Source: Escherichia coli
GTDB taxonomy: Bacteria; Pseudomonadota; Gammaproteobacteria; Enterobacterales; Enterobacteriaceae
Strand: one strand, 5' to 3'
DNA length: 64,000 bases
NCBI RefSeq assembly: GCF_017348835.2
Contig: NZ_CP072317.1
Shown: positions 53,935 to 54,192 of the stretch, one piece after another
How positions within the stretch are numbered: the stretch's first letter is position 1
How the letters are laid out: every line of letters starts with the position of its first letter
Notes under the pieces: model-generated
The model's input: only the letters and a program-made list of their open reading frames with translations
The model's database searches: none
What the model was told of the DNA's origin: nothing
Position numbers and translations under genes: made by a program

Positions 53935-54192
53935 CAGGATGACCTTGTCGATTAATGAATTGGGGGGGATTACCGTATGACGTCAGGGTGACAGAACCCG
54001 CAGAGCAAGTGAAGAACTGGGTTTGCCAATTTTTCCCTATCCTGATTTACTGAAATGGTATTGACGGTAGTGCTGATATTCAGGCCACTTTTTTAGTTGA
54101 TAAAAGTCTGTAATTCTTTTTACCGTCTGGGAAAAATTTACGGTGGTAATCACCCCCCAATTATTTCAGTATGAGTAAACTTGGTCTGACAG

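Follow-up and report, generated by a model that had tools for sequence, protein, structure and literature searches.

The window analysed here, a stretch of 64,000 nucleotides from the Escherichia coli contig NZ_CP072317.1 (assembly GCF_017348835.2), contains a resistance module in which blaCTX-M-3, the adjacent gene orf477 and a truncated blaTEM gene are bracketed by two copies of the insertion sequence IS26 in inverted orientation (51347-52166, + strand; 54934-55753, - strand). A 235-bp segment (53935-54169) joins orf477 to the 3' end of blaTEM and is the subject of this study. It contains an inverted repeat, described below, for which an earlier sequence-only reading had offered two explanations: an ISEcp1 transposition unit having its right boundary here, or a small inserted element. 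The first of these is correct as regards the end of the segment, and the repeat itself appears to be an older feature of the Kluyvera DNA that ISEcp1 carried along. The module is organized as follows, IRR denoting the right inverted repeat of ISEcp1.

51347-52166, + strand: IS26 (820 bp), with terminal repeats GGCACTGTTGCAAA...TTTGCAACAGTGCC and a transposase open reading frame (ORF) at 51392-52114; it cuts ISEcp1.
52167-52408, + strand: ΔISEcp1, the last 242 bp of the element, 100% identical to ISEcp1-bearing plasmids.
52409-54169, + strand: Kluyvera-derived passenger DNA (1,761 bp), a contiguous match to the Kluyvera chromosome L001.
52409-52535: spacer (127 bp) between the IRR and blaCTX-M-3.
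52536-53411, + strand: blaCTX-M-3, assigned from its translation and annotated as CTX-M-3 at 100% in plasmid records H26 and H28.
53458-53934, - strand: complete orf477, encoding a WbuC-family cupin-fold protein of 158 amino acids, assigned from its translation (TIGR04366, E=4e-43).
53935-54169, - strand: the segment studied (235 bp), the non-coding intergenic region upstream of orf477.
54152-54169, + strand: putative surrogate right end, the IRR-like sequence ACCCCCCAATTATTTCAG, which overlaps the right repeat arm.
54170-54174, + strand: right copy of the target duplication TATGA.
54170-54933, - strand: Tn2 fragment, comprising 23 bp downstream of blaTEM and ΔblaTEM (54193-54933, the 3' 741 bp).
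54934-55753, - strand: IS26 (820 bp) in the opposite orientation to the first copy, with its terminal repeats read and a transposase ORF at 54986-55708 on the minus strand; it cuts blaTEM.

Relatives of orf477 were sought in one genome per species, and 80 loci were obtained. The IRR of ISEcp1, ACACACGTGGAATTTAGG, occupies positions 52391-52408, and identity to Kluyvera DNA begins at 52409, directly abutting it. Indeed, the chromosome of Kluyvera INSAq229 (L001) matches 52409-54173 in one piece (1,765 bp, 95.6% identity), from the first base past the IRR. Three native contigs carrying the same orf477 variant (L001, L085 and L087) all possess both arms of the inverted repeat, and all continue beyond the end of the segment (...CCAGCACA|CTGAAATAATTGG..., starting with CTGAAAT); the two smaller repeats nested inside the segment are likewise found in native Kluyvera. 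The segment is therefore native Kluyvera intergenic DNA 5' of orf477, and the repeats predate mobilization. L087 is closer to the window than L001, over a contig of 1.2 kb only. The native locus shares with the window the order aminotransferase, bla, orf477 and intergenic region with both arms (95.6% over 1,765 bp) and differs from it in having no ISEcp1, in running on into a gene for an ECs1377-family helix-turn-helix (HTH) protein, and in the shorter homopolymers of its arms. This native locus is that of the CTX-M-1-group progenitor lineage; Rodriguez et al. are said to have described, in 2004, a blaCTX-M-3 locus on the K. ascorbata chromosome. It has long been established that orf477 lies downstream of bla on Kluyvera chromosomes (PMC4086240).

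INSAq229 is labelled Kluyvera intermedia, and its chromosomal locus (bla at L001 6523-7398, corresponding to 52536-53411 in the window), which includes the 127-bp spacer, is nearer to the window than that of the K. ascorbata type strain (~76% over orf477 only). Either the species name given to this strain or the assignment of the progenitor may merit re-examination.

Three independent lines of evidence concur in placing the right end of the transposition unit at 54169|54170, 7 bp past the right repeat arm. Kluyvera identity ends at 54169, the apparent reach of the L001 match to 54173 being a chance match of three of four bases. From the other side, the thousands of plasmid matches that contain blaTEM only (Tn2/blaTEM-1) cover exactly 54170-54933 at 100%; as the sequence-only reading had noticed, the Tn2 match downstream of blaTEM holds up to ...CTCATA and stops at 54170. 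Its proposal that an ISEcp1 transposition unit has its right boundary in this region is borne out at this position, where Kluyvera DNA ends and Tn2 starts. The reading had also considered what would speak against it, namely that the segment is contiguous Kluyvera or Tn2 sequence with no boundary here: Kluyvera DNA does run through the repeats without interruption, and a real Kluyvera/Tn2 boundary does exist at the right end. No plasmid was found in which a longer unit carries the next Kluyvera DNA past 54169; the best match reached 72% and involved homologous genes only.

The Tn2 insertion was reconstructed from plasmids in PLSDB. Uninterrupted Tn2 (compared with L082) reads ...AAAGTATA-TATGA-GTAAAC... 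and contains a single copy of the target (GTATA-TATGA-GTAAAC; ...AAAGTATATATGAGTAAAC). As the third line of evidence, a left-junction chimera was predicted beforehand on the assumption of a 5-bp duplication, joining the Tn2 tail ...GTATATATGA to the left inverted repeat (IRL) of ISEcp1, CCTAGATTC, and was then sought in PLSDB, where it occurs in one piece and at 100% identity in 157 plasmids. One of these, CP035638.1 (L084), has the order qnrS1, Tn2 IRR tail, TATGA, ISEcp1, blaCTX-M-3, orf477, the segment, TATGA, blaTEM-1 and tnpR, with the junctions TATGA|CCTAGATTC... and ...ATTTCAG|TATGA enclosing a unit of 3,417 bp. The 5-bp target duplication TATGA is thus present on both sides in CP035638.1; the window keeps the right copy only (54170-54174), the left one having been deleted. 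In plasmid record H28, which was examined for the left end, ISEcp1 is cut by IS1. No open-access paper found by the literature search states the TATGA duplication at this insertion. Plasmid pCTX-M3, at first considered the archetype of this unit inside Tn2, was dropped from consideration because, according to a review of that plasmid, the ISEcp1-blaCTX-M-3 module follows pemK there.

The module is flanked by IS26, which has clearly rearranged the region, so that the junction between orf477 and blaTEM could be viewed as a product of IS26 activity or homologous recombination instead of ISEcp1 transposition. However, 764 bp separate the junction from the closest IS26 end, and the same junction occurs, with a perfect 5-bp Tn2 target duplication, in plasmids that have a complete ISEcp1 together with complete blaTEM-1/Tn2 and no adjacent IS26. 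Because of the TATGA duplication this origin of the junction is refuted, and we consider it exceedingly improbable. What IS26 did affect is the left part of the unit: neither the IRL nor the transposase gene of ISEcp1 is intact in the window, both having been deleted by IS26, while ISEcp1 is intact at the same insertion in the 157 plasmids exemplified by CP035638.1. The copy in the window is evidently an immobile remnant because it has lost the intact IRL and transposase gene to IS26. No 8-bp target duplication was found outside the IS26 pair, the flanks TTTTGAGA and ATCAATAA differing in either orientation, which would fit separate IS26 events and not movement as one unit.

The following course of events would account for the locus. 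ISEcp1 would have inserted into the chromosome of a Kluyvera strain, upstream of a blaCTX-M-3-type gene, and its transposase would have paired the left end of the insertion sequence not with its own right end but with the weak IRR-like sequence at 54152-54169. In this way 1,761 bp of adjacent chromosome, consisting of the spacer, the bla gene, orf477/wbuC and the greater part of the intergenic region upstream of orf477, would have been mobilized and inserted into Tn2 at a point 23 bp beyond the stop codon of blaTEM-1, with duplication of the target TATGA. IS26 copies inserting later would have deleted 1,414 bp from the start of ISEcp1 and 120 bp from the 5' end of blaTEM, giving rise to the IS26-bracketed module. 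The inverted repeat and the repeats nested in it would be a passenger feature of Kluyvera, the right arm overlapping the surrogate end by chance, and the repeat presumably plays no role on the plasmid. That such one-ended transposition proceeded by misrecognition of the right end is suggested by the established biology of ISEcp1 in the literature.

Taken as a whole, this account, in which the segment forms the terminal 235 bp of an ISEcp1 transposition unit of 3,417 bp, is in our view highly probable. Some observations weigh against it. The window contains neither the ISEcp1 left end nor the TATGA copy beside it, so that related plasmids served to reconstruct the transposition; the nearest native sequence over the whole unit is 95.6% identical and so not the actual donor; and the segment in the window folds better than its shuffles (z = -2.99 in the sense of orf477 and -2.88 on the opposite strand), with three nested pairs forming one long-range fold, which leaves a small chance of a function for the repeats.

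The last 18 nt of the unit, ACCCCCCAATTATTTCAG, agree with the ISEcp1 IRR at 9/18 positions. Within the Kluyvera passenger DNA, a score of at least 9 against the IRR is reached at 27 of 1,744 positions, which places this sequence in the top 1.5%. A further candidate lies inside orf477:

53785-53802, + strand: latent alternative right end, GCGCACGTAGGTCCCAGG, matching the IRR at 10/18 positions and used by the shorter unit of the blaCTX-M-15 type.

Indeed, the matches to CTX-M-15 plasmids stop at 53802, and L083 reads ...CCCAGG|TCATA with TCATA also ahead of the IRL, revealing the 5-bp duplication of the blaCTX-M-15-type unit. We take ISEcp1 to be 1,656 bp long, the blaCTX-M-15 spacer to be 48 bp and the published blaCTX-M-15 unit to be 2,971 bp; with these figures, the sum of 1,656 bp of ISEcp1 and 1,394 bp, less the spacer difference of 79 bp, is likewise 2,971 bp. 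This ISEcp1-blaCTX-M-15-orf477Δ unit, located in tnpA of Tn2, shares with that in the window the insertion sequence, the Kluyvera source, the mechanism and the use of a surrogate right end, and has duplicated TCATA. It differs in ending at the equivalent of 53802 within orf477 and in its shorter spacer, and lacks what we term the 3' (promoter-proximal) 132 bp of orf477 as well as the entire 235-bp segment.

The inverted repeat and the smaller complementary pairs that it encloses are located as follows.

53958-53974, no strand assigned: left (proximal) inverted-repeat arm, AATTGGGGGGGATTACC.
54028-54037, no strand assigned: left arm of the middle nested repeat, AATTTTTCCC, forming a predicted helix with its partner at 54129-54138.
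54063-54069 (GACGGTA) and 54121-54127 (TACCGTC), no strand assigned: inner nested repeat, predicted helix.
54129-54138, no strand assigned: right arm of the middle nested repeat, GGGAAAAATT, predicted helix.
54145-54162, no strand assigned: right (distal) inverted-repeat arm, GGTAATCACCCCCCAATT.

Both arm sequences quoted in the sequence-only reading are present, and its position for the right arm is correct; the left arm, placed there at 53948-53964, actually lies 10 nt higher. The arms are complementary save for a 1-nt indel, the complementarity extending to ~21 nt if a second indel is allowed. The motif AATTGGGG-N1-6-ATTACC occurs at two sites only in the 64-kb window, which are the arms themselves, and in none of 100 shuffles. 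On the other hand, among 3000 dinucleotide shuffles of the segment, 44 contained a generic gapped inverted repeat with as good a score, as did 49 of the 638 other 235-nt windows of the 64 kb. The inverted repeat is therefore real and exceeds chance only modestly. Nor does it delimit the segment, as had been supposed: its arms lie 23 nt and 7 nt inward of the segment ends. The homopolymers within the arms vary in length among the otherwise almost identical sequences of the window, L001, L085 and L087, the C-run of the left arm measuring 7, 6, 5 and 5 and the G-run of the right arm 6, 6, 5 and 4, with the longest runs on the plasmid copy; such drift appears typical of slippage.

The arms have the appearance of termini, a 17/18-nt inverted repeat spanning ~205 bp end to end and unique in the window, and could be viewed as the terminal repeats of a non-autonomous element of the miniature inverted-repeat transposable element (MITE) type, inserted either between orf477 and blaTEM or, before capture, in Kluyvera. 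However, no direct repeat flanks the arms (...ATTAATG versus ATTTCAG...). A search of 7.3 Gb of plasmids at blastn sensitivity found no other copy, every match being to the same locus at at least 95% identity, and the other enterobacterial loci that were fetched (~0.9 Mb) do not contain the arm motif. Furthermore, all six of the Kluyvera loci compared have kept the interior block CTTCACTTGC...GGTTCTGGCA upstream of orf477, including those of K. ascorbata ATCC 33433 and K. sichuanensis, which have no proximal arm. The sequences of K. genomosp. 1 and K. cryocrescens are colinear at 62-65% to about the unit end and provide no empty site. A MITE was consequently rejected as an explanation, the sequence being single-copy in the plasmids and loci searched, devoid of a target duplication and orthologous in its interior across Kluyvera, and we regard it as very improbable; the small inserted element offered as an alternative by the sequence-only reading gains no support, the whole segment including its arms being contiguous native Kluyvera intergenic DNA. 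Like MITEs and palindromes of the enterobacterial repetitive intergenic consensus (ERIC) type, the segment is a non-coding intergenic stretch of ~200 bp with terminal and nested inverted repeats; unlike them, it is single-copy, lacks a target duplication, has an orthologous interior and has no related sequence elsewhere. The resemblance to ERIC found no support.

The folding of the segment raises the question of whether the nested repeats have a function in cis in the region upstream of orf477/wbuC in Kluyvera, acting as a structured leader RNA or as paired operator sites, for instance for the divergent ECs1377-family HTH protein. The native sequences L001 and L085 have the same topology as their minimum-energy fold and, in a comparison of L087 with L001 read by eye from the alignment, both sides of the middle helix have changed with pairing kept (AA(C)UUUUUCCC/GGGAAAAAUU to CAUUUUCCC/GGGAAAAUG). 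Yet the folding of the native relatives L001 and L085 is not significant (z = -0.76 and -0.55), orthologues of the region in K. genomosp. 1 and K. cryocrescens (z = -0.61 and +0.45) do not share the helices, and RNAalifold reported 0 compensatory pairs. Rfam returned no family match save a spurious one to a small nucleolar RNA (E=0.059), and consensus scans of the segment detected neither a sigma-70 promoter nor a terminator. The slippage in the arm runs also argues against a function. The arms as operators for the neighbouring HTH protein were rejected, no similar motif being present upstream of three ECs1377-family homologues elsewhere. The arms were not conserved in other Kluyvera species, and a metagenome scan for native non-plasmid variants yielded one K. 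cryocrescens-like contig only and no close variant. A cis element of this kind is accordingly very unlikely, and the overall chance that the repeats serve a function is similarly small. In a wider form of the idea, the nested repeats might be a functional element specific to the lineage of the CTX-M-1-group progenitor and control orf477/wbuC or the HTH gene, either as RNA (a leader or antisense structure) or as a pair of operators that loop the DNA; or secondary structure around the distal arm might have favoured the choice of end by ISEcp1. This is speculative and quite unlikely; if true, a functional element would ride unrecognized on several hundred resistance plasmids.

In L001, the gene for the divergent ECs1377-family HTH protein (L001 5082-5735) is the next one past the unit end; homologues of it at 68-72% nucleotide identity occur on >500 plasmids, mostly F-like plasmids of E. 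coli. Because K. cryocrescens and K. genomosp. 1 hold an unrelated gene in its place, there appears to be a synteny break within a few bases of the end of the ISEcp1 unit, which may be a coincidence.

The structure of the module is already known. A search of PLSDB with 234 bp (53936-54169) found the segment in 391 plasmids, with at least 99% identity in 389 of them, and, of 5,426 complete genomes of E. coli, 156 contain the Kluyvera-Tn2 junction. Over its inner 2,768 bp the module matches NZ_CP020340.1 at 100% and blaCTX-M-55 plasmids at 99.9%, and the surrounding 20 kb are ~99% identical to IncFII plasmids of the pHNMC02/pHNGD4P177 type. An arrangement IS26-ΔISEcp1-blaCTX-M-orf477-ΔblaTEM-IS26, with the IS26 copies in opposite orientation, has been reported for F33:A-:B- plasmids (PMC7364219), and two contexts of blaCTX-M-55 dominate worldwide, of which this module is one (PMC10434037). 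The published IS26-truncated ISEcp1-blaCTX-M-3/-55-orf477 unit in Tn2 of F33:A-:B--type IncFII plasmids is identical in structure to the window, which carries blaCTX-M-3, whereas the published module more often carries blaCTX-M-55.

The significance of these results lies mainly in correct annotation. The right end at 54169, the duplication TATGA and the surrogate IRR define the 3,417-bp blaCTX-M-3/-55 unit as against the 2,971-bp blaCTX-M-15 unit, which aids the tracing of the spread of the module. Annotating the inverted repeat as a mobile-element terminus would be a mistake. Some records annotate a 'hypothetical protein' over the non-coding 235-bp segment, and an 'hp' is drawn between orf477 and blaTEM in a published scheme of the module (PMC10434037); what lies there is non-coding Kluyvera intergenic DNA. 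In plasmids identical to the window, the resistance-gene prediction of PLSDB labels the IS26-truncated blaTEM remnant (54193-54933) as 'TEM-244', probably in error, since the gene is partial.

Adjoining the left IS26, positions 51268-51346 (GGTAATGACTCCAACTTATTGATAGTG...CCGATTTTGAGA) resemble what we take to be an IS1 end cut by IS26. This fits a ΔIS1 that is said to bound this resistance region (PMC7364219).

Other 235-nt windows with strong inverted repeats, scoring 26-40, lie at ~37001-37335, 48901-49235, 39501, 34001, 31901-32235 and 30001-30335. The strongest inverted repeat of the window is a perfect 56-bp palindrome at 32652-32707 (28+28 nt with no spacer, ATGATAATATAAGTAAAGCCCCGAAAAA|TTTTTCGGGGCTTTACTTATATTATCAT), located beside a DUF932 gene. 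The palindrome appears to be a feature of the plasmid backbone because the surrounding 361 bp are conserved in >4,000 F-like plasmids, including R100.
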